This document shows positions 20,429 through 31,880 of a stretch of DNA of 64,000 nucleotides, in pieces. The stretch's first letter is position 1. Each line of letters opens with the position of its first letter. The translations under genes were made by a program, and so were the position numbers. The stretch covers positions 130,087 to 194,086 of the forward strand of contig JAWKHU010000038.1 in the NCBI GenBank assembly GCA_041394685.1, in the 5' to 3' direction. Under the pieces are notes generated by a model that saw nothing but the letters and a program-made list of their open reading frames with translations, did not search any database and was not told the DNA's origin. The stretch comes from Vicinamibacterales bacterium. GTDB taxonomy: Bacteria > Acidobacteriota > Vicinamibacteria > Vicinamibacterales > UBA2999.

Positions 20429-20935
20429 TTAGCGGCAGTCGCCGAGGACCTTGACGTCCTTGACGTCGATGCGTCGCGCGACGATGTCGAACTCGCGATC
20501 GTCGTCACCGCGAGCGCTGCCGGACAACCACGTGTTCGGCACGCGGATCTTCTCCTCCTCGCCGTCGAGGTCCAGTTCGATCTCGGTGTAGTCGCCGTCG
20601 CGATCGATCTCCACCTCGCCCGTCTCGAAGTCCTTCAGCTCGCCCTTGAGCTCGACGCGCCGGCCGACGTGCGCCGCCAGGCTGTCGTCGTCGTCAATCC
20701 AGTAGAAGACACGGGACGAGGCCGCGGGGACCGGCATGCCGGCCGCCGCCAGCATGATGTCCCTGCGCGTCCACGCCAGTGTGCGTGACGCGTCGGGTGT
20801 GCCAGCGGCCTCCTGCAGGACGCAGCCGCTGATGGTGATGTCATCGTCGTCCACGGTGATCGACGGCTGTGCGGCCGCCGGCGCGGCGAGCATTGCCAGG
20901 AGCGGGAGCGCGAATCCGAAGTGCAGTGCCCTCAT
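20429..20935 (-). CDS. Secreted acidic hypothetical protein
   Basis: 168-aa ORF with signal peptide MRALHFGFALPLLAMLAAPAAAQ, Asp/Glu-rich beta-like segments and GC3-rich codons. No family recognised. Confidence 0.55.
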   Translation of the reverse strand: MRALHFGFALPLLAMLAAPAAAQPSITVDDDDITISGCVLQEAAGTPDASRTLAWTRRDIMLAAAGMPVPAASSRVFYWIDDDDSLAAHVGRRVELKGELKDFETGEVEIDRDGDYTEIELDLDGEEEKIRVPNTWLSGSARGDDDREFDIVARRIDVKDVKVLGDCR

Positions 20936-20948
20936 GTGAGTCCTCCTG

Positions 20949-21191
20949 CTACGCTTTCAGGTCGTCTGGACCGTGCGCACGACGGTTCGCATCGCGTTCA
21001 CGCCACGCGCCCTTCTCGGGCGCGGCCGGCTCGTCGTTGGCGTTGTCCGTCAGGCTGCGATTCGGGTCGACCGACGCCGACTCGTCAATCGCGGCGTCGT
21101 CGATGTCGATGGGCTTGTCGGTACGTTCCGTTGCCGCATCTGGCGAGCCGCCGTTCGATGTTGTCCGCTCCGATGGGATATGCCGTTCCAT
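20949..21191 (-). CDS. Small acidic hypothetical protein (weak call)
   Basis: MERHIPSERTT...DIDDAAIDESASVDPN.... Third positions are mostly G/C in this frame, and it ends 14 nt upstream of the next same-strand gene. Confidence 0.35.
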   Translation of the reverse strand: MERHIPSERTTSNGGSPDAATERTDKPIDIDDAAIDESASVDPNRSLTDNANDEPAAPEKGAWRERDANRRAHGPDDLKA

Positions 21192-21322
21192 GGCTGATCC
21201 GGGAGCAAGTCCGGTGCCGCCCCTCCCCACCGATGAGCTGTCGCGACGACCGTATGGACGCGGTGCTGACGCGGCGTGATAATGAGCCGCTCTTCATCCG
21301 GCGCGAGTACAGGAGGACGGCA

Positions 21323-23260
21323 ATGCGACGAACGCGAGCGTTGGCGACGTGTGCGGCGGTGGCGGCCTGGGCAACCGTGCTGGCGGCGTCGCAAGCCGGC
21401 CCATCGTCCAGCCGCCTGACGCTGGACCTGTACTGGGAGTACGAAACGGTGTCCGATCCGCGGCTGTCGCCGGACGGATCCGAGATTCTCTACACCCGCC
21501 AGTGGATCGACAAGCTGAACGACAAGCGCGAGTCGTCGCTGTGGATCATGAACGCGGACGGGTCGAAGAACCGCTTCCTGGTTCGCGGCAGCAACGCGCG
21601 CTGGTCACCGACCGGCGATCGCATCCTCTACACGGGACAGGGCGAGCCGAAGGGCACGCAGGTGTTCGTCCGATACATGGACGCGGAAGGCGCGACGACA
21701 CAGGTGACCCGTGTCGAGAAAGCCCCGGCCAGCGTCACCTGGTCCCCTGACGGCCAGTCGATCGCCTTCACGATGAAGGTCGAGAAGAAGAACACCTGGC
21801 CCATCGCGATGACGAAGGCGCCGGACGGCGCCAAGTGGACGGAGGCCCCGCGTATCGTCGAGCGGCTGGACTACCGCCAGGACCGCGAGGGCTTCACCGA
21901 CGATGGGTACCGGCACGTGTTCGTCGTGCCGGCCACGGGCGGCACCGCCCGCCAGCTCACCGACGGCGACTGGGACCACAACGGCGTGGAGTGGACGCCC
22001 GACAACGCCACGATTCTCTTCACTTCGCTGCGCGTCCCCGACGCGGACTACCAGTGGCGCGAGAGCGAGATCTACGCCGTATCCGTCGCCACCGGCACGA
22101 TCGCGCAACTGACGCGACGGAAGGGGCCCGACAGCAACCCGAAGGTGTCCCCGGACGGAAAGCGGGTGGCCTACACCGGCAACGACTGGTCAACGGACAC
22201 GTGGCGCGACACGAAGCTCTACGTGATGAACATCGACGGCAGCGGCGCGCAGCTGGTGTCGGGCGACTGGGATCGCTCACCGCAGAACATCGAGTGGAAG
22301 TCCGACGGCACCGGCCTGTATTTCAGCGCGCAGGACCAGGGCACGCAGAACCTCTACCTGCTGCCGCTGGCAGGGTCGCGGGCCGACGAGGTCCAGCCGG
22401 TGACCACGGGGACGCACATGCTGGCGGCCTCGACCTTCGCCAAGGGCAAGGCCGTGGGCGTCCGCAGCTCGTTCCAGGTGCCGCCGGACATCGTCACGTG
22501 GGACCTGGCGGCGCCGGAGCGCGTCACGCAGCTCACGCACGTGAACGACGACATCCTCGCCGGGCGCACGCTCGGGGAGGTGCACGAGATGTGGTACACC
22601 TCGCCGGATGGCGTGAAGGTGCAGGGCTGGTACATCACGCCGCCGGACTTCGACCCCTCGAAGAAGTACCCGATGCAGCTGCACATCCACGGCGGGCCGC
22701 ACGGGATGTACAACGTCGGCTTCAACTACGGCTGGCAGGAGATGGCGGCCAACGGCTACGTCATCCTCTACACCAACCCGCGCGGCAGCACCGGCTACGG
22801 CAGCGCGTTCGGCAACATGGTCATGCGCGCCTATCCGAGCAAGGACTACGACGACCTGATGGCAGGCGTCGACACCCTGATCGGCAAGGGCTTCGTGGAC
22901 ACGCAGAACATGTTCGTCACCGGATGCAGCGGAGGCGGCGTGCTGACGGCGTGGGTCGTCGGCAAGACCGATCGGTTTGCCGCCGCGTCGGCCAACTGCC
23001 CCGTCACCGACTGGCTGAGCTTCGTCGGCACCACCGACAGCGCCAGCTGGTACTACAACTTCGACAAGCTGCCCTGGGAGGATCCGTCCGAGCACCTGCG
23101 CCGCTCGCCGCTCACCTACGTGGGACAGGTCAAGACGCCGACGATGCTGATGACGGGCGTGCAGGACCTGCGGACGCCCATGCCGCAGACCGAGCAGTTC
23201 TACAGCGCGCTCAAGCTGCTGAAGGTGCCCACGGCGATGATCCGCTTCAACAACGAGTGA
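21323..23260 (+). CDS. S9 family serine peptidase (prolyl oligopeptidase/acylaminoacyl-peptidase type) ending at an in-frame TGA; homology continues to 23374
   Basis: AGGAGGA RBS and a signal peptide, then a beta-propeller N-domain (WSPDG repeats). The catalytic Ser is in GCSGGG and the Asp in GVQDLRTP. The ORF stops at ...RFNNE-TGA, and the same frame continues HGTTTTPSNFVRTQLYLRYWFDRH to a TGA at 23372..23374. Confidence 0.8.
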   Translation: MRRTRALATCAAVAAWATVLAASQAGPSSSRLTLDLYWEYETVSDPRLSPDGSEILYTRQWIDKLNDKRESSLWIMNADGSKNRFLVRGSNARWSPTGDRILYTGQGEPKGTQVFVRYMDAEGATTQVTRVEKAPASVTWSPDGQSIAFTMKVEKKNTWPIAMTKAPDGAKWTEAPRIVERLDYRQDREGFTDDGYRHVFVVPATGGTARQLTDGDWDHNGVEWTPDNATILFTSLRVPDADYQWRESEIYAVSVATGTIAQLTRRKGPDSNPKVSPDGKRVAYTGNDWSTDTWRDTKLYVMNIDGSGAQLVSGDWDRSPQNIEWKSDGTGLYFSAQDQGTQNLYLLPLAGSRADEVQPVTTGTHMLAASTFAKGKAVGVRSSFQVPPDIVTWDLAAPERVTQLTHVNDDILAGRTLGEVHEMWYTSPDGVKVQGWYITPPDFDPSKKYPMQLHIHGGPHGMYNVGFNYGWQEMAANGYVILYTNPRGSTGYGSAFGNMVMRAYPSKDYDDLMAGVDTLIGKGFVDTQNMFVTGCSGGGVLTAWVVGKTDRFAAASANCPVTDWLSFVGTTDSASWYYNFDKLPWEDPSEHLRRSPLTYVGQVKTPTMLMTGVQDLRTPMPQTEQFYSALKLLKVPTAMIRFNNE

Positions 23261-25831: not shown

Positions 25832-26114
25832 GACACGCTCCTGGGCAACTCATGCAGGCGGCCGGCGGACGCCTGGCGCAGGTCGCGCGGCGATCACCGG
25901 CCTGGCGGAGCGGGACACGCGGGGGTCGTGACCGCGCCCGATTCAGGCAGAGCCGACTGTAGAAAGCGCGTGTAACGTCGGAGGGAGCGAACGCTCGATG
26001 GCCGCGTAAAACTTCGCGGCCGTGCAGCCGCGCGCGTGGCGCCCAGGACCGGGCGGATGGCGGCCCGGTCACGCAAGTGCGCGCGACCGGGCCGGACTCA
26101 GCGGACGAGCGGGC

Positions 26115-27461
26115 TCAGATCCCGCCCGTGCAGCAGAGCACCGTGTACGCGACGGCCTCGCTGCGCACGTCGCCGTGGTCCTTGATGGTGTCGTCGGCGT
26201 TGATGTTGTTCACGGTGCCCGGCGCGAAGCGGTAGGCCGTGCCCTTCGGCCCCATCTTCGCGTCGTGTCCAGCCGCCTCGAGGGTGTGCTGCGCACCGTT
26301 GCGGCCCATGCCGCCGTAGGGGTCGTTCTGATCGCCCAGGGCCGCCGCCACCTGTCGCGCGATGCGCGAGGCCAGCGGGTAGGCCACGCCCACCGCCTGG
26401 TCGTTCTTCGTGTGGGTGATGACGATGGGGCCGGAGACGCGGGCGTCGGCCAGGACCGTCCGGTAGAAGCCCGCCTTGCCCTTGCCGTAGTCGGCCGAGA
26501 GCGCGTTGTGCGAGAACGCCGCCTGCAGGAGCGAGATCGTGACGTTGCCCGTCTGCTTGGCCAGCGCCGAAGCCGCGGCGGTGACCAGCCGGCCGCCGAA
26601 GCTGTGGCCGACGAAGTGGATGCGCAGCTCGGGGTGGGCCTTGCGGCATCGCGTGACGAGCCTGGCGACACCGGTGCTGCCGACCAGGCCCGCACGCTCC
26701 TTCATCTGGTAGTAGGTGACGAAGTTGGCGATGCGGCGCGCGGCGGCGGTGGCGCTCTCGACCATGTCGCGGAAGCCGGCCGCCCCGCCAGCCGGCGGGC
26801 CGAACGACGTGGCGCCCCCACCCTTCGGCTTCGGCTTCGGCGCCGTCACGCCCGCCGCCAGTGCCGTGAACAGCTTCTCGGCGTCCGCCTTCAGGAACTC
26901 CGCGGAGCCATCGTCCACCTCGCGGGCGCCCTTGCTCTTCGGCATGGTCGTGCGGAGGGCGGCAACGAAGGCCTTGCGTGCCGCTGCCGACGTTTCGAGC
27001 CTGGGAACCGCCTTGATCGCCCGGTCGATGGCCTTGACGCGGGAGGCCGGCTGCTCCTTGCCGCCGAGGCGGACGGGGTCGCGCTTCATGGCCTGCAGCA
27101 CCGCAATGAGCGCCTTGTCGCTGGCCTTCGTCGCGCTGGCGGCCCCGCCGCCGGGAATGAGCTCCGCGTCGGTGAACTTCTTGCTGGGCCAGAAAACCTG
27201 GCAGACCGCGTAGGTGCGTCCCTCGAGGGCCTTGATGGCCGGCGGTGCACCCGCCTTGCCGCGCGCGTCGAGCAGCTTCGAGATGTTGCCGACCAGCTCG
27301 TCGTAGAGCGTGCGTGCGTCGGCGATGTCGTTGTTCCAGCCGTGCGAGGCGACGATCAGGTCGGTGACGCCGTCGAGACCGGCGACCAGCGCGTCTGCCT
27401 GGGCGGGCTTGAACACCTCGCCGTCCTTGGTGAACTCGACATCGAAACGGGCGAGCGCCAT
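26115..27461 (-). CDS. Atypical alpha/beta hydrolase, DUF900-like, with a large insertion and a low-complexity linker
   Basis: The start ATG at 27461 follows a GAGGAGG RBS that overlaps the stop of the upstream subtilase. Motifs are LIVASHGWNND, VFWPSKKF and the nucleophile elbow FVGHSFGG. The linker is APKPKPKGGGATSFGPPAGGAAG. No signal peptide. The 703-aa ORF-track extension upstream is spurious. Confidence 0.65.
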   Translation of the reverse strand: MALARFDVEFTKDGEVFKPAQADALVAGLDGVTDLIVASHGWNNDIADARTLYDELVGNISKLLDARGKAGAPPAIKALEGRTYAVCQVFWPSKKFTDAELIPGGGAASATKASDKALIAVLQAMKRDPVRLGGKEQPASRVKAIDRAIKAVPRLETSAAARKAFVAALRTTMPKSKGAREVDDGSAEFLKADAEKLFTALAAGVTAPKPKPKGGGATSFGPPAGGAAGFRDMVESATAAARRIANFVTYYQMKERAGLVGSTGVARLVTRCRKAHPELRIHFVGHSFGGRLVTAAASALAKQTGNVTISLLQAAFSHNALSADYGKGKAGFYRTVLADARVSGPIVITHTKNDQAVGVAYPLASRIARQVAAALGDQNDPYGGMGRNGAQHTLEAAGHDAKMGPKGTAYRFAPGTVNNINADDTIKDHGDVRSEAVAYTVLCCTGGI

Positions 27462-27475
27462 GGCTGCAGTCCTCC

Positions 27476-29308
27476 TCACACCGACTGGATGGCCCGGATC
27501 AGGTCCACCAGGCCGTTGCCTTCGAAATACCGTTCGCGCCCGAGCGGCGTCGCCGTCGTCGTGAACACGCGCTTCACGTCCTGCGGCTTGCCGATGAACT
27601 CGCGGCGGATGGAGAGGAACGCGGCGATGGCGCCCGAGACGTGCGGCGCGGCCATCGAGGTGCCGCTGTCCTCCATGTAGTAGGCGGTGCGCTTGCTGCG
27701 GCGGCCGTGGCGGCCCGCCGAGGCGAGTGCCTGCGCCAGCTTGCGGCCGGCGCCGCACGACGAGATGCGCTCGCCCGGCGCCACGAGATCGGGCTTGATG
27801 CGCCCGTCGCCCGTCGGCCCCTTCGACGAGAAGTACGACACGCCGTAGGTGTGGGGAGAATCGCGATGGGTCGAGCCGACGGTGATGGCCTCGTCGGCAT
27901 TGCCGGGGTCGTTGATGGTGTTCGAGAGCCCGACCTTGGTATCGCGCGCCCACGCGCCGACGGTGCCATAGCCGGTGTTGCCCGCGGCGGCCACCACCAC
28001 GACGCCCGACTGGACGAGACGGTTCACCTCGGCGCAGAGCGGGCTCTGCCCGCAGGCGAACATCTCCGCGTCGAACTCGTAGCCGACGCTCAGGTTCACG
28101 CCGTGGACGCGCAGCAGCTTCGGGTTGTCGTTGAGCCGTTCGCGGATGTAGGCGAGGGCGCGGATGACGTCGCTCGACCGGCCATCGCCGGATCCGTCGA
28201 GCACGCGCAGGCTGATCAGCTTGCACTGCGGCGCCACGCCGCGGAACCGGCTCGGGTCCTTGTGCGGGATTGCCTCGTACTTGCTGCGCTCGCTCTCGAT
28301 CTGGTCGGTGTCCGCCTGGTCGATGCGCAGCACGCGCTCCAGCGAACAGACGGCGGCGTCCTTGCCGTCGGGCGCGCGACCCGCGATGATCCCCGCCACG
28401 TGCGTGCCGTGGCCGAGGTCGTCCACCAGGGCGAGGGCGCGATGGCGATCCAGGAGCTGCTGCCGCTGCTTGCGATCCTTCTCCGCATCGCCCGTGCTCC
28501 GGAGGAGCGAGGGATCCGGCAGGGGCCCCTCACCCGACGGCCCCGGATCCGAGATGAAGTACCGGTGGAGGTCCCGCACCTCGGGGTCGCGCAGCGTGCC
28601 CCCGTCGGCGGGACCGAAGTGGGGGTGCGTGGCGTCGATGCCCGAGTCGATCACGGCCCAGACGATGCCGCGGCCGCCGGCCTCGTAGGACTTGAGCGCC
28701 GCGTCCGCCTTGATGGTGGGCATGGAGCGGTAGATGTGGCCCTTGACCGGGAAATCGGGCCACAGCTTGTAGACGGCGCGGAACATCATCGAGTCGTACT
28801 GCGGCGAGCCCTTGACCTGCGTGCTCTCACGGTTGGCCCTGGCCGCCGCCTCGGTCGCCCGCCGGTCGTCCGCCACCAGCAGCGTGCGCCACTCGTCCAC
28901 CCGGAGACGCCAGGTGAAGTAGGTCTTGGCCAGCGGGATGGGCTCGGGCGCGTCGGGCAATACCTGCTCGTGGAGCTCGAGCAATGCGCCGGACGCGCCC
29001 TCGAGCCCGCCCATGTGCTGCAGGTTGAGCTCGATGACGTAGGGCCCGCGGCGATCGTGCTCGCTCTCGAGGTTCCACGACTTCCGCTTCTCCGGGTCGT
29101 ACAACTCCGGCGGCGCGAACATCTTCGAGAACCGGACGGTCAGGTCGGTGGCGTCGGCGCGCGTGCGTTCGCGCGGCGCGGGCGGCCCCTGCATGGGCGG
29201 CTTGCCGGACGCGGACGTGGCGCGGCGGCGGGCGGTGGCGGACCGGCGGGTGCCTTTGGCGGCCGACCGGCTGCCCCGCGTGGTCGTCGTCTTCTTCTTC
29301 TTGGCCAT
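27476..29308 (-). CDS. Cytoplasmic S8 (subtilisin-family) serine peptidase with basic disordered N-tail and unknown ~200-aa N-domain
   Basis: Intact 610 aa. Catalytic triad motifs are VIDSGID, HGTHVAG and GTSMAAPHVSG. The N-terminus MAKKKKTTTTRGSRSAAKGTRRSATARRR is not a signal peptide. There is an unusually long Asp-to-His spacer. Confidence 0.85.
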   Translation of the reverse strand: MAKKKKTTTTRGSRSAAKGTRRSATARRRATSASGKPPMQGPPAPRERTRADATDLTVRFSKMFAPPELYDPEKRKSWNLESEHDRRGPYVIELNLQHMGGLEGASGALLELHEQVLPDAPEPIPLAKTYFTWRLRVDEWRTLLVADDRRATEAAARANRESTQVKGSPQYDSMMFRAVYKLWPDFPVKGHIYRSMPTIKADAALKSYEAGGRGIVWAVIDSGIDATHPHFGPADGGTLRDPEVRDLHRYFISDPGPSGEGPLPDPSLLRSTGDAEKDRKQRQQLLDRHRALALVDDLGHGTHVAGIIAGRAPDGKDAAVCSLERVLRIDQADTDQIESERSKYEAIPHKDPSRFRGVAPQCKLISLRVLDGSGDGRSSDVIRALAYIRERLNDNPKLLRVHGVNLSVGYEFDAEMFACGQSPLCAEVNRLVQSGVVVVAAAGNTGYGTVGAWARDTKVGLSNTINDPGNADEAITVGSTHRDSPHTYGVSYFSSKGPTGDGRIKPDLVAPGERISSCGAGRKLAQALASAGRHGRRSKRTAYYMEDSGTSMAAPHVSGAIAAFLSIRREFIGKPQDVKRVFTTTATPLGRERYFEGNGLVDLIRAIQSV

Positions 29309-29516
29309 AGGCGTGAGGGGGCGAGGGACACGGATTCTGCGTGAACCCTTCTGATGGTGTCAACCGAACGCGCCAACGTTACAGGAGCCGCGCGTGCGAT
29401 GCCATCGCAACCCGACGGCCTGGCGGGCCGGGCGCCGTCGTCGGCCCCCGTCCACGCACCTCCGGCGGATGTGCGAAGATGCCCGTCGCCACCTCGACCC
29501 ATCACGGACCACGACC

Positions 29517-31121
29517 ATGCGCCAACTCCTGACCCTCGCCGCCCTCGTGACCGCCTCCATCGCCCTGTCGGCGCAGACACCCGCGCGAACGACGACGCTG
29601 GCCGGGCTCGACCCCGCCACCATCGGCCGCATCCGGACCGAGGCCACGCGGAGCTCGCAGGCGGTGGATCACATCTGGTGGCTGTCGGAGGTGTACGGCC
29701 CGAGGCCCACCGGGTCGCCCGCCTTCCAGCAGGCGTCGGAGTGGGCGATGAAGCGCTTCTCCGACTGGGGACTGTCCAACGTGCACCAGGAGCGCTTCCC
29801 GTTCGGCCAGGGATGGACCATCGAACGGTTCTCCGCGCACCTGGTGGCGCCGCAGACGCAGGCCTTCATCGGCGCGCCGCGCTGGTACTCCCCGTCGACG
29901 GACGGTCCGGTGCTCGCCGACGTGGTCCACGTGGACGCTCGCAGCGAGGCCGACCTGGCGAAGTACGCCGGGCAGCTGCGCGGCAAGATCGCCGTGATGC
30001 AGCCGGCCCGGCGCGTCCGCCTGCTGGACGGCCGCATCGTGCTCCGCATGGGGGATCAGGAGTGGGACGAGGCGATGCGCACGCCGATCGAGCCCGCCTC
30101 GGGCGGAGGGCCCGGCCAGGCGTTCCGCAACGCGCAGGCCTTCCAGCAGGCCGTCCAGACGTTCCTCGTGGCGGAAGGCGCCGCCGTGCTGCTCGAGCGC
30201 GGGTCCGACAACGACGAGACGCCGGGCGGCAGCGACCTGCCGTGGATGCAGCAGCGTGTGGACGGTGGGACCGTGTTCCCGACCAATGGCGGCAGCCGCG
30301 ACCCGGATGCCCCGAAGCCTGTGCGCCGTCGGCCACGTTTCGCCGCAGCGCACCGGCAACTGCGACCGTGCGGCTTCGTCGATCGCGCCCGTGCGGATGG
30401 AAGTGAACATCCAGACCCGGTTCCATCCCGAGACGGACCCGGCCGGCAACGCCATCAACACGATCGCGGAGATCCCGGGCACCGACCGCCGAGTGTCGTG
30501 ATCCTCGGCGCCCACTTCGACAGCCATCCCTACGCGGGCGGCGCCACCGACAACGCGACGGGCTCCTCGGCCATGATGGAGGCGGTCCGGGCGTCATCCG
30601 TGCCCTCGGCCTGAAGCCGCGCCGCACGATTCGCGTCGCCCTGGGCCGCCGAGGAGCAGGGGCTGCTGGGATCGCGCGCCCATGCGCAGCGCCACTTCTA
30701 CGACCCGCAGACGGGGAGGTGAAGCCCGATCACGCGCGCGTGGCCGCGCATACTTCAACCTCGACAACGGCACGGCCGCATTCGCGGCGTGTGGGGGCAG
30801 GGCAACCTCGGCGCCATGCCCATCCTCGAGCAGTGGGGCGTCGGTGCAGGACCTCGGCTTCAAGGCGGTCAGCCCGAGGAGCGTGACCTCCACCGACCAC
30901 GTGCCGTTCGACGCGGCGGGCCTGCCCGGCTTCCAGTTCATCCAGGAACGGCTCGAGCATCAGGCGCGCACGCACCATCTGAACATGATAACCTTCGATC
31001 ACGTGCAGGCCGAGGACCTGTGCAGGGGCGCGGTGGCCGCCGTGTTCGCAGGGCATGCGGCCAACTGGCCGGAAAAGCTCCCGCGAAGGCGATGCCGGCG
31101 CGCACGGGCACCGGGCAGTAG
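29517..31121 (+). pseudogene. M28 family aminopeptidase, secreted; at least 4 frame breaks as sequenced
   Basis: Signal peptide is MRQLLTLAALVTASIALSAQ. Pieces in different frames are VRMEVNIQTRFHPETDPAGNAINTIAEIPGTD, VILGAHFDSHPYAGGATDNATGSSAMMEAVR, AYFNLDNGT, and SVTSTDHVPFDAAGLPGFQFIQERLEHQARTHH. Confidence 0.65.
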
Positions 31122-31136
31122 CACGACGCGCTCGCG

Positions 31137-31880
31137 TCAGGGACTCTTGCGCCCGCCCGGGTAGTGCACCTGCCGGTCGTGGTTGATGGGCGACGCCAGC
31201 AGACGCCGCCGGTCAGCCGCCCGGCGCGGGCAAGCCCAGCGCCTGACCATCAACGTCTGCTCGAAGCGCGTGGCGCCCTCGTCCTCGAGGAACAGCCGCT
31301 CGTTGCCCGCCCGGGGTGATGAGGAGGTGGCCAGTTGGAGTAGTGCACTTCGCCCAGCGCGTAGGACACGCCCGCGTGGCTGCGATGTGGCGGCGATTCG
31401 CGTGCCCGGCCCGTCGGGGAAGCGCAGGCGAGGCGCCGCGCCGGATCGAGATTTCAGCAGGGCCTCCGGCCCCGGTGGTCGCCGTAGAACTCCGTGTAGG
31501 AGAGCTTGAGGCAGTCGTCGAGGCGTGGTTTCGTTCTGGAGGATCTCGACCGCCGAGGCCAGCAGGCCCGGCACGCGGGTCGGGAAGCCGTTCCGGCAGA
31601 GGCCGGGCGCGTCCTGCAGGAGCATGTCGTCCTCGAAGAACGCCGCGATCTCCGCGTCGGTCTGCTGCGCAACGTGTGGCGCACCAGGCGCGGCCGCCCA
31701 TGATGCCCAGTTGCCGTCGCTCACGCGCGAACCTGTAGCGCGCCGCCAGCTCGCGGTTGGCCGTGTGCCGACTCGTCGGTCGAGCTGTCGAGCAGGATGC
31801 GGCGCGCCGCCTGCGACGAGCGCGGGCTCGACGGCCGACGCGCTCGAACCATCGCGCGAGCTGCGCCGGCGCGTCGGCGA
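31137..31880 (-). pseudogene. Hypothetical protein, fragmented over several frames (weak call)
   Basis: Coding-like pieces are ILADAPAQLARWFERVG, TANRELAARYRFAR, SDGNWASWAAAPGAPHVAQQTDAEIAAFFEDDMLLQDAPG, LDDCLKLSYTEFYGDH and the end ...PINHDRQVHYPGGRKSP. No family recognised. Confidence 0.3.

Follow-up and report, generated by a model that had tools for sequence, protein, structure and literature searches.

A subtilase and an alpha/beta serine hydrolase inherited as one unit: a candidate protease-activated effector module in a Vicinamibacterales genome

Introduction

The question raised by this locus is what an S8 subtilase and an alpha/beta serine hydrolase, both predicted to be cytoplasmic, do as the products of one gene pair. 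The pair occupies positions 26115-29308 of the minus strand in a 64,000-nucleotide (nt) stretch of a Vicinamibacterales genome (Acidobacteriota; assembly GCA_041394685.1, contig JAWKHU010000038.1, positions 130,087 to 194,086 of the forward strand). This whole stretch is called the window below, and all coordinates are positions in it. A first-pass annotation had proposed a protease-activated hydrolase effector. The proposal was supported by computational analysis of co-conservation, partner distribution and export signals, and cleavage, toxicity and phage defence would follow from it.

For this pair, the function is predicted to be that of a protease-activated alpha/beta-hydrolase death effector acting in anti-phage or other conflict, which we consider moderately probable. 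This reading explains the data best because a caspase-associated alpha/beta-hydrolase zymogen is made lethal by two cuts (PMC12642450). In that system, LcCaspase of Lysobacter capsici cuts LcHydrolase at R73|G and R117|G (Evans et al., bioRxiv 2025, PMC12642450), releasing a 4.7-kDa middle fragment, and the N-terminal and C-terminal pieces kill E. coli when co-expressed; the substrate of LcHydrolase is reported as unknown. In a computational study, an alpha/beta hydrolase had been found with the caspase in every case (Kaur et al. 2020, PMC7159879). The 2025 preprint also mentions a module class of S8 protease and metallo-beta-lactamase (S8-MBL, "MBL clade 3"), reported to hold a protease-activated nuclease zymogen (PMC12642450).

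Results

Co-conservation and inheritance of the pair

The two genes of the window are as follows.

27476..29308, minus strand: S8 subtilase gene, intact, 610 amino acids (aa) plus stop, with a Peptidase_S8 match
26115..27461, minus strand: alpha/beta serine hydrolase gene, intact, 448 aa plus stop

Both open reading frames (ORFs) are intact and together span 26115-29308 exactly, in agreement with the two-gene minus-strand unit that had been described (subtilase 29308..27476, hydrolase 27461..26115). In a GTDB scan with one genome per species, 80 loci were obtained, of which 78 were testable; in the other two the contig ended at the hydrolase. A subtilase homologue (43-81% identity) adjoins the hydrolase in 78/78 testable loci; it lies directly upstream on the same strand in 77 and directly downstream in one (L036), and the stop-to-start spacer is 3-78 nt in 75/77 related loci. 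Because no testable related locus lacks this gene pair, the observation is not due to chance. The pairwise-identity matrices of subtilase and hydrolase are correlated (r=0.875, a value reached by 0/999 permutations). The two proteins co-evolve and are inherited as a unit, and the pairing recorded by the first-pass annotation is a conserved one. The pair was found in Acidobacteriota, Actinomycetota, Pseudomonadota (Alpha-, Beta- and Gammaproteobacteria), Planctomycetota, Verrucomicrobiota, Cyanobacteriota (including Melainabacteria), Bacteroidota and Gemmatimonadota.

More than 3,500 hydrolase homologues of ~445 aa were detected, and a profile search gave 2,558 clusters at 50% identity, 759 of them at E<=1e-30. 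One recorded protein, from a Vicinamibacterales MAG (metagenome-assembled genome), is identical to the window hydrolase. Three independent cluster representatives (P0364, P0424 and P0463; 979-1065 aa) are apparent fusions with the hydrolase N-terminal and the S8 subtilase C-terminal. In a further protein (P0495), a hydrolase-family domain is joined to a bona fide DUF900 domain (E 1.5e-47).

When ORFs of at least 90 aa were clustered across the 80 loci, no third conserved gene emerged (best cluster 9/80, mostly related Gemmatimonadaceae), and a search for conserved ORFs of 25-130 aa up to 1.2 kb from the pair gave only N-terminal parts of divergent subtilases. This lack of a conserved small ORF argues against a precursor peptide or a small antitoxin. 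It bears on the idea that the pair matures ribosomally synthesized and post-translationally modified peptides (RiPPs), in which the subtilase would remove a leader peptide and the hydrolase would act as macrocyclase or esterase. S8 proteases and alpha/beta-fold enzymes are both known from RiPP pathways, a faint match to PatA/PatG models was obtained, and a LanC-family gene lies 2.3 kb downstream on one Rhodococcus plasmid. However, no conserved precursor-peptide ORF or biosynthetic gene was found across the 78 loci and the window flanks leave no space for a precursor gene; we hold a RiPP role to be scarcely credible.

The distribution of the pair is patchy and incongruent with taxonomy, and the window copy is 67% identical to that of Rhizobium laguerreae compared with 37-50% to those of other Acidobacteria. 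The pair is carried by large plasmids of Rhodococcus, Burkholderia and Rhizobium, and in R. laguerreae it lies in an IS66 context. It is an autonomous, horizontally mobile two-gene module. The G+C content of the locus is about 62-63% in Nocardioides and Rubrivivax and 37% in Adhaeribacter (L012, L020 and L065), where the neighbouring genes have a GC3 of 0.20. These values are presumably below the G+C of the host genera and would be consistent with recent acquisition.

Paralogous copies were also observed: two loci (L005 and L006) lie in the same metagenome-assembled genome (MAG; DASZOV01), and plasmid pRHL1 of Rhodococcus jostii RHA1 has three hydrolase places. Plasmid pNit of Rhodococcus rhodochrous apparently carries a copy of the module in decay (L086, 6583-8335): all that precedes a 30%-identical hydrolase homologue is the unannotated C-terminal remainder of a subtilase, residues 496-610, at 54% identity.

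Relatives of the hydrolase and of the subtilase

Distant hydrolase homologues (23-26% identity) keep HGW, WPS, MKxRAG, GHSFG, D354 and H429. A second hydrolase clade comprises more than 2,300 proteins, mostly from filamentous cyanobacteria, and aligns with the S8-paired clade over 399 columns, insert included (hhalign probability 100%, E 8.7e-44). Where its loci were examined, the second clade adjoins clan-CD proteases (C25-like and/or CHAT), mostly with NLR-like nSTAND1-WD40 genes. The contexts include a directly adjacent C25-like peptidase (Pfam C25 33 bits vs 23), CHAT-nSTAND1-WD40 giants in Scytonema, Coleofasciculus, Nostoc and Planktothrix, a CHAT/SIR2 gene with an nSTAND1-WD40 gene in a gammaproteobacterial MAG, four-gene CHAT operons in Gemmobacter and Bradyrhizobium, a C25 pair in Sinorhizobium and an nSTAND1-WD40 gene alone at one locus (L094). 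The C25/CHAT-paired clade is the caspase-alpha/beta hydrolase pairing of Kaur et al. (PMC7159879). In every related locus examined, the hydrolase thus stands beside a protease gene, a protease remnant or, once, a STAND-WD40 gene, and it does not have the independent distribution of a housekeeping esterase that the first-pass annotation had considered.

These relatives also bear on the direction of the coupling, which could be reversed or mutual: the hydrolase would mature, regulate or neutralise a toxic subtilase, or both enzymes would act sequentially on a shared target. The fusion proteins show physical association and not direction, and translational coupling, plasmid location and inheritance as a unit would suit an addiction module. 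In addition, effector-less caspase-like proteases can themselves confer defence (PMC12642450), and conservation in the subtilase's C-terminal half exceeds that of the hydrolase. Against this, the Ser-Asp-His triad and the oxyanion motif of the hydrolase are invariant in 71/71 aligned sequences, which argues that the hydrolase is not a mere inhibitor because an inhibitor would not need them. The hydrolase family also partners proteases of unrelated fold, which is more easily explained if the hydrolase is the common output, and the LcHydrolase fragments alone are lethal (PMC12642450). A reversed or mutual coupling is therefore regarded as quite unlikely.

Outside the family, the subtilases closest in sequence (35-39% identity across the catalytic domain) are encoded directly upstream of MBL-fold hydrolase genes. 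Such S8-MBL pairs were found on plasmids of Miltoncostaea, Paroceanicella, Sinorhizobium meliloti and Methylorubrum, beside patatin or cyclase-E2-TIR genes. On plasmid pCMU01 of Methylorubrum extorquens CM4 (L105, 734-7409), adenylate/guanylate cyclase, E2-domain and TIR genes lie directly upstream of the S8 and MBL-like genes, the latter with a sub-threshold Lactamase_B match (18.4 bits). Together these genes may form a larger conflict cluster that combines signalling with a protease.

The hydrolase and its insert

The features of the hydrolase are listed below.

27330-27344, minus strand: HGWNN codons
26601-26603, minus strand: S287 codon
26400-26402, minus strand: D354 codon
26175-26177, minus strand: H429 codon
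27129..27164, minus strand: loop 1, residues 100-111, ELIPGGGAASAT, predicted disordered (predicted local distance difference test, pLDDT, 43), candidate protease recognition/cleavage site
26841..27128, minus strand: helical insert, residues ~112-207, with helices at 115-201 (pLDDT 72-97), candidate inhibitory "middle fragment"
26766..26840, minus strand: loop 2, residues 208-232, PKPKPKGGGATSFGPPAGGAAGFRD, Gly/Ala-rich disordered linker (pLDDT 35-38), candidate second cleavage site

The hydrolase carries the motifs HGWNN (residues 40-44), VFWPSKKF (89-96) and GHSFGG (285-290), as well as the KPKPKGGG linker (209-216) noted in the first reading. HGWN, S287, D354 and H429 are invariant in 71/71 aligned hydrolases. 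The AlphaFold model (predicted template modelling score, pTM, 0.86) shows an alpha/beta-hydrolase core, in which strand 34-40 leads to HGWNN, 280-286 to S287, 346-350 to D354 and 417-421 to H429. Between strand beta4 (84-90, VFWPSKKF) and the long helix 237-275, which we read from the model as the core helix preceding the nucleophile strand, lies an insert. Low-confidence loops at residues 103-111 and 208-231 stand on either side of its helices (115-201). The insertion had been put at ~230 aa; its actual length is ~135 aa in total (residues ~100-235), residues 237-275 being the long helix.

This anatomy, two disordered loops around a helical insert in the predicted model, is compatible with a two-cut zymogen. 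Loop 1 (LIPGGGAASA) is conserved like the catalytic motifs, with a block conservation of 0.80 compared with 0.88 for GHSFGG (P103 in 64/71, G104 in 68/71, G105 in 67/71 and A107 in 70/71 sequences). In the GGAAG motif of loop 2, three positions (G225, A227 and G229) do not vary among the 27 closer homologues, and the other two (G226 and A228) hardly vary. The motifs differ between the clades: the S8-paired hydrolases have PGG(G/A)A in loop 1 (and, in closer homologues, GGAAG in loop 2), whereas the caspase-paired ones have VSF-type motifs in both loops and PGG(G/A)A was absent from their loop 1. The caspase-paired motifs, (S/A)VSF and EPVSFG, stand at alignment columns ~120-128 and ~222-232. 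Such repeated loop motifs may be two protease sites per clade, or strands pairing at the base of the insert.

The most conserved stretch of the hydrolase comprises residues 361-392 (26286-26381, minus strand; YPLASRIA...DPYGGMGRNGAQ), with a block conservation of 0.73-0.94 and a pLDDT of 51-64. No counterpart of it was found among known lipase families, and it may be a substrate- or partner-binding element.

All Pfam matches of the hydrolase (Lipase_3, DUF900 and Tle3) are sub-threshold and lie around GHSFGG. For DUF900 (PF05990), the score is 17.3 bits vs a gathering score of 20.5, rising to 20.2 when residues 100-235 are deleted in silico, and the alignment then reaches profile positions 20-127. 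The DUF900-like landmarks HGWNN, VFWPSKKF and GHSFGG named by the first-pass annotation are therefore present, but the score stays below the cut-off and the likeness is resemblance, not membership. Lipase class 3 (PF01764) was likewise rejected (21.3 bits vs 22, over residues 263-305, the nucleophile elbow, only). With both families the hydrolase shares the motif order HG-x-N ... WPS ... GHS-x-G; unlike them, its own family has the ~135-aa insert and the DPYGGMGRNGAQ motif. When the hydrolase model was compared with PDB by Foldseek, no structure came below E 0.06, and the matches were generic lipase/esterase folds only.

The subtilase and its N-terminal domain

The features of the subtilase are listed below.

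29138..29308, minus strand: basic disordered N-terminal tail, residues 1-57 (pLDDT ~30, conservation ~0)
28739..29137, minus strand: conserved N-domain, residues ~58-190, beta-alpha-beta-beta-alpha-beta-beta (pLDDT 85-96)
27479..28726, minus strand: subtilase catalytic domain, residues ~195-610 (catalytic-residue conservation, alignment of 71)
28646-28648, minus strand: D221 codon
28409-28411, minus strand: H300 codon
27977-27979, minus strand: N444 codon
27656-27658, minus strand: S551 codon

The protein belongs to Peptidase_S8 (PF00082; residues 212-592, E 7e-46, 157 bits vs a gathering score of 21.8) and has the Asp-His-Ser triad in D-H-S order together with the oxyanion Asn. D221, H300, N444 and S551 are conserved in all 71 aligned subtilases (with one alignment gap at D221). 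With the triads of both proteins conserved in 71 sequences, both enzymes are predicted to be catalytically competent. Across phyla, conservation per block is ~0.7-0.99 over residues 400-610, except for the variable 451-460 and 521-540, and variable inserts lie at residues 231-290, 311-350 and 521-541. The spacing of Asp221 and His300 is 79 residues, compared with 32 in subtilisin BPN', in line with the unusually long insert that had been described.

The subtilase begins with MAKKKKTTTTRGSRS... and the tail is strongly basic and disordered, as had been noted. Tails of at least 25 aa occur in 42/110 subtilase homologues; they are basic (26% K+R vs 9% D+E) and have no sequence conservation. The domain behind the tail, left by the first-pass annotation as an unassigned N-domain of ~200 aa, indeed has no sequence match, neither to the I9 propeptide (PF05922) nor otherwise in the Pfam and PDB profile searches, but it occupies the propeptide position of a subtilase. 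In a Foldseek search with the whole subtilase model, the top matches were ProN-Tk-SP, pro-subtilisin E, pro-Tk-subtilisin, PCSK9 and SUB1; these are unprocessed forms that align over almost their entire length and come ahead of mature subtilisins in the ranking. In mature subtilisin Carlsberg, the counterpart of S195 is residue 7, which places the pro/mature junction near residues 188-194. Judged by the order of its secondary structure, by the ranking of the pro-forms and by the Carlsberg alignment, the N-domain sits in the place of the I9 propeptide, and on fold and position we read the protein as a cytoplasmic pro-subtilase. When compared with the N-terminal region of an MBL-paired subtilase, the N-domain showed no detectable similarity.

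The PADLOC model "subtilase" (PDLC03014, E 4e-50) matched only the generic catalytic core, no better than Pfam S8, and is not evidence of membership.

Neither protein has a signal or transmembrane segment, the maximum Kyte-Doolittle value over 19-residue windows being 1.38 in the subtilase and 1.16 in the hydrolase. The two proteins lack signal peptides as first described, and no export signal emerged; a cytoplasmic location of both is predicted from this. The alternative is that both are exported non-classically, as an inter-bacterial toxin or as degradative enzymes, the N-domain being a secretion-linked propeptide. Propeptide-bearing S8 subtilases are normally secreted, the hydrolase has a weak Pfam resemblance to the Tle3 lipase effector of type VI secretion, and a Tle1-like fragment or DUF2235 gene lies near the pair in two loci. 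Besides lacking signals, the pair has no conserved secretion-system genes nearby and occurs in monoderm and diderm phyla alike. The mycosin model of type VII secretion (TIGR03921) gave 96.4 bits vs a cut-off of 278.75. Export is considered very unlikely.

Operon structure and flanking genes

The remaining features of the locus are given below.

29334..29363, minus strand: sigma-70-like promoter, TTGACA-18-CAGAAT, 26 nt upstream of the subtilase ATG
27471..27478, minus strand: subtilase TGA (27476-27478) overlapping the hydrolase GAGGAGG ribosome-binding site (RBS; 27471-27477), read directly
26061..26094, minus strand: GC hairpin with a 14-bp stem and a 6-nt loop, 21 nt past the hydrolase stop

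At the gene junction, gtgTGAggaggactgcagccATG is read directly. The GAGGAGG shares the last two bases of the subtilase stop and is followed by a 9-nt spacer to the hydrolase ATG, which lies 14 nt past that stop; the overlap of TGA and RBS reported at first sight was confirmed. The promoter-like site, a consensus match only, lies within an 85-bp divergent intergenic region (1 found vs 0.1 expected from shuffles). The hairpin (-36.5 kcal/mol, z -4.4) has no U-tract, was equalled in folding by 0/200 shuffles and is probably the operon end. The promoter-like site, the stop/RBS overlap, the 14-nt spacer and the terminal hairpin together indicate a single operon.

The G+C content of the window is ~71%, and that of the pair is in line with its surroundings. 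The flanks encode PhoD, a frame-broken M28 peptidase, heme oxygenase, an S9 peptidase and a glycosyltransferase, with no defence neighbours. The M28 gene is split into two ORFs, 29394-30614 and 30682-31164 (both plus strand), and its Pfam match, limited to profile positions 9-46 of 193, lies where the former ORF ends. The S9 ORF (20921-23260, plus strand) stops early, at profile position 184 of 213. The observation that neighbours are frame-broken around an intact pair is thus correct.

Defence context of the pair

Among the 136 genes that are nearest neighbours of the pair, the defence-like families were SIR2_2 (three genes), TIR_2 (three) and FRG (two). SIR2_2 and FRG genes neighbour the pair in L081 and L101-L104. 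In one MAG locus (L100, 11355-13588), a TIR_2-TPR gene and a DUF4231/SLATT gene begin 8 nt past the hydrolase stop and are possibly co-transcribed with the pair. In L101-L104, the pair lies on an IS3-flanked island of ~17 kb, seen in 23 contigs from several samples. In addition to the S8-hydrolase pair, this island carries a ParB-N6/N4 methyltransferase, a Terminase_4 small terminase, RNase_T, two FRG genes, a 1,010-aa SIR2_2 protein and a SpoIIE-like phosphatase, and it looks like a mobile defence island or a satellite-like element.

Discussion

Comparison with known systems

With LcCaspase-LcHydrolase, the window pair shares a protease gene adjoining an alpha/beta hydrolase, the cytoplasmic nature of both proteins and a hydrolase closest to lipases. 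As in the modules of Evans et al., the hydrolase is conserved beside a protease (78/78 testable loci). The two-site-flanked internal segment of LcHydrolase lies N-terminal of the nucleophile part and is matched by the two flexible loops of the window hydrolase, and the second clade of the window hydrolase family has C25/CHAT and STAND-WD40 partners, the kinds of partner described in the preprint. The differences are that the window protease is a serine S8 subtilase with a propeptide-like domain and not a cysteine caspase, that the pair has no sensor domain or sensor gene, and that the insert consists of ~120 aa of helices compared with 44 aa, with Gly/Ala-rich candidate sites in place of R|G. 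A caspase-like partner cutting at R|G was rejected for the window, where the partner is an S8 protease and the loops carry PGG(G/A)A and GGAAG.

The S8-MBL modules resemble the pair in their two-gene layout, their plasmid location, their patatin, TIR and cyclase neighbours and their combination of a protease with a latent hydrolytic effector; they differ in that the effector is a metallo-beta-lactamase nuclease and not an alpha/beta serine hydrolase.

Gasdermins of bacteria and fungi are paired alternately with S8 subtilases or CHAT proteases, sometimes inside NLR-like proteins (PMC8851545). The gasdermin systems (such as HET-Q1/HET-Q2) are alike in this S8/CHAT alternation and in their cytoplasmic, signal-less proteases, and activation there is proteolytic. 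HET-Q2 has no propeptide (PMC8851545), whereas the window subtilase has a propeptide-like domain. Furthermore, the window effector is an enzyme and not a pore former, and a gasdermin loses a C-terminal peptide by a single cut.

IetAS, reportedly described by Gao et al. 2020, is said to be a two-gene defence system of the ATPase IetA and the S8 subtilase IetS, and the window pair resembles it as a two-gene system with an intracellular S8 subtilase. The analogy, drawn in the first reading, proved not to be apt: the NCBIfam IteS model gives 36.9 bits vs a cut-off of 900, and no conserved ATPase neighbour was found. The PADLOC IetS match (E 2e-14) covers only the generic catalytic core.

Proposed mechanism

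If the pair is a protease-activated death effector, the subtilase would be made in the cytoplasm with its N-terminal propeptide-like domain and would probably be latent. The hydrolase, a lipase/esterase-like enzyme, would be kept inactive by the helical insert of ~120 residues between beta4 and the pre-nucleophile helix. Upon a trigger (phage infection or another insult), the active subtilase would cut both loops beside the insert, the first at PGG(G/A)A (~103-109) and the second, which is Gly/Ala-rich, at ~215-230. The remaining N-terminal and C-terminal parts would stay joined as the catalytic core and destroy an essential ester- or amide-containing substrate, possibly a membrane lipid, leading to cell death or arrest by the logic of abortive infection. 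The trigger might be sensed by the propeptide-like domain, by the variable inserts at the surface or by the basic tail.

A more specific form of this mechanism is a sensor-less two-tier zymogen cascade, in which the pro-subtilase would itself be the sensor: its propeptide-like domain, perhaps with the variable inserts or the tail, would serve as guard or decoy, an invader or a stress would displace or degrade it and so free the protease, the protease would excise the helical lid of 120 residues from the pro-lipase-like hydrolase, and the hydrolase would lyse the cell. This form appears unlikely. If true, it would be a bacterial death cascade from pro-protease to pro-enzyme, with a new sensing principle unlike that of the NTPase-sensor systems known to date.

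Evidence for and against a death effector

Several points weigh against the death-effector reading. The direction of action (protease on hydrolase), the cleavage sites, the toxicity, the defence role and the substrate are all inferred. Regarding the subtilase, the propeptide assignment was made from fold-search ranking and position, with no sequence match, the model is weak in the C-terminal half (pTM 0.67), and no recognisable sensor domain was found in the pair. Regarding the hydrolase, the disordered loops were predicted in a model from a shallow alignment of 27 sequences, the block conservation of loop 2 is only 0.51 across 71 sequences, and its GGAAG is absent from the Rhizobium plasmid variants; such conserved Gly-rich loops might instead belong to the active site or to an interface. 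LcHydrolase, a putative relative, is shorter than the window hydrolase by ~150 residues. The genomic context is mixed, and the association with defence islands is only partial. The window flanks are housekeeping genes, which do not look like a defence island, as had been remarked at the outset. The 136 nearest neighbours fall into 130 different Pfam families, mostly housekeeping, few PADLOC matches were found among the neighbours (mad3, PDC-S15 and TIR-TM), and none of the viral contigs scanned in IMG/VR carries the pair.

This context would also suit an accessory physiological module, in which an intracellular protease and an esterase serve, for instance, the turnover of a storage or stress-related polymer or lipoprotein, nutrient scavenging or developmental remodelling, and the insert is a cap that binds substrate. 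Metabolic or housekeeping genes surround the pair in most loci, including those in the window and in Nocardia, and defence-like neighbours are a minority. On Rhizobium pRL11, the pair lies between an acetamidase/ABC-transporter cluster and thiMED, and the hosts are mainly large-genome taxa of soil and water. However, the distribution is patchy and incongruent with taxonomy, with IS-flanked and plasmid-borne copies, and there is no conserved metabolic partner gene. In addition, the second hydrolase clade lies inside CHAT/STAND/WD40 conflict systems, and the sister subtilases with MBL-fold partners lie near patatin, TIR and cyclase genes. A physiological role is judged distinctly unlikely. All four alternatives (reversed or mutual coupling, physiological role, export and RiPP maturation) fit the data less well than the death effector.

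Significance

Caspase-paired alpha/beta-hydrolase zymogens and S8-MBL modules are already known (2025 preprint, PMC12642450), as is the caspase-hydrolase pairing since 2020 (PMC7159879). The searchable literature yielded no account of a module that joins an S8 protease to an alpha/beta hydrolase, nor of the propeptide-like domain or the large helical insert of such a module.

Protease-gated death effectors are an emerging dominant logic of bacterial immunity, with parallels in caspases and gasdermins. To these, the S8-hydrolase family would add a widespread sensor-less module (~2,500 clusters at 50% identity in the hydrolase superfamily, at least eight phyla). Capture of the same effector family independently by serine and cysteine proteases supports modular exchange of proteases and effectors in conflict systems. 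As a compact two-gene system, the pair would offer a route to the substrate of such hydrolases and a model for the latency and triggering of a propeptide-bearing cytoplasmic subtilase, and it would allow one to ask whether excision of an internal lid is a general way of activation across protease classes.

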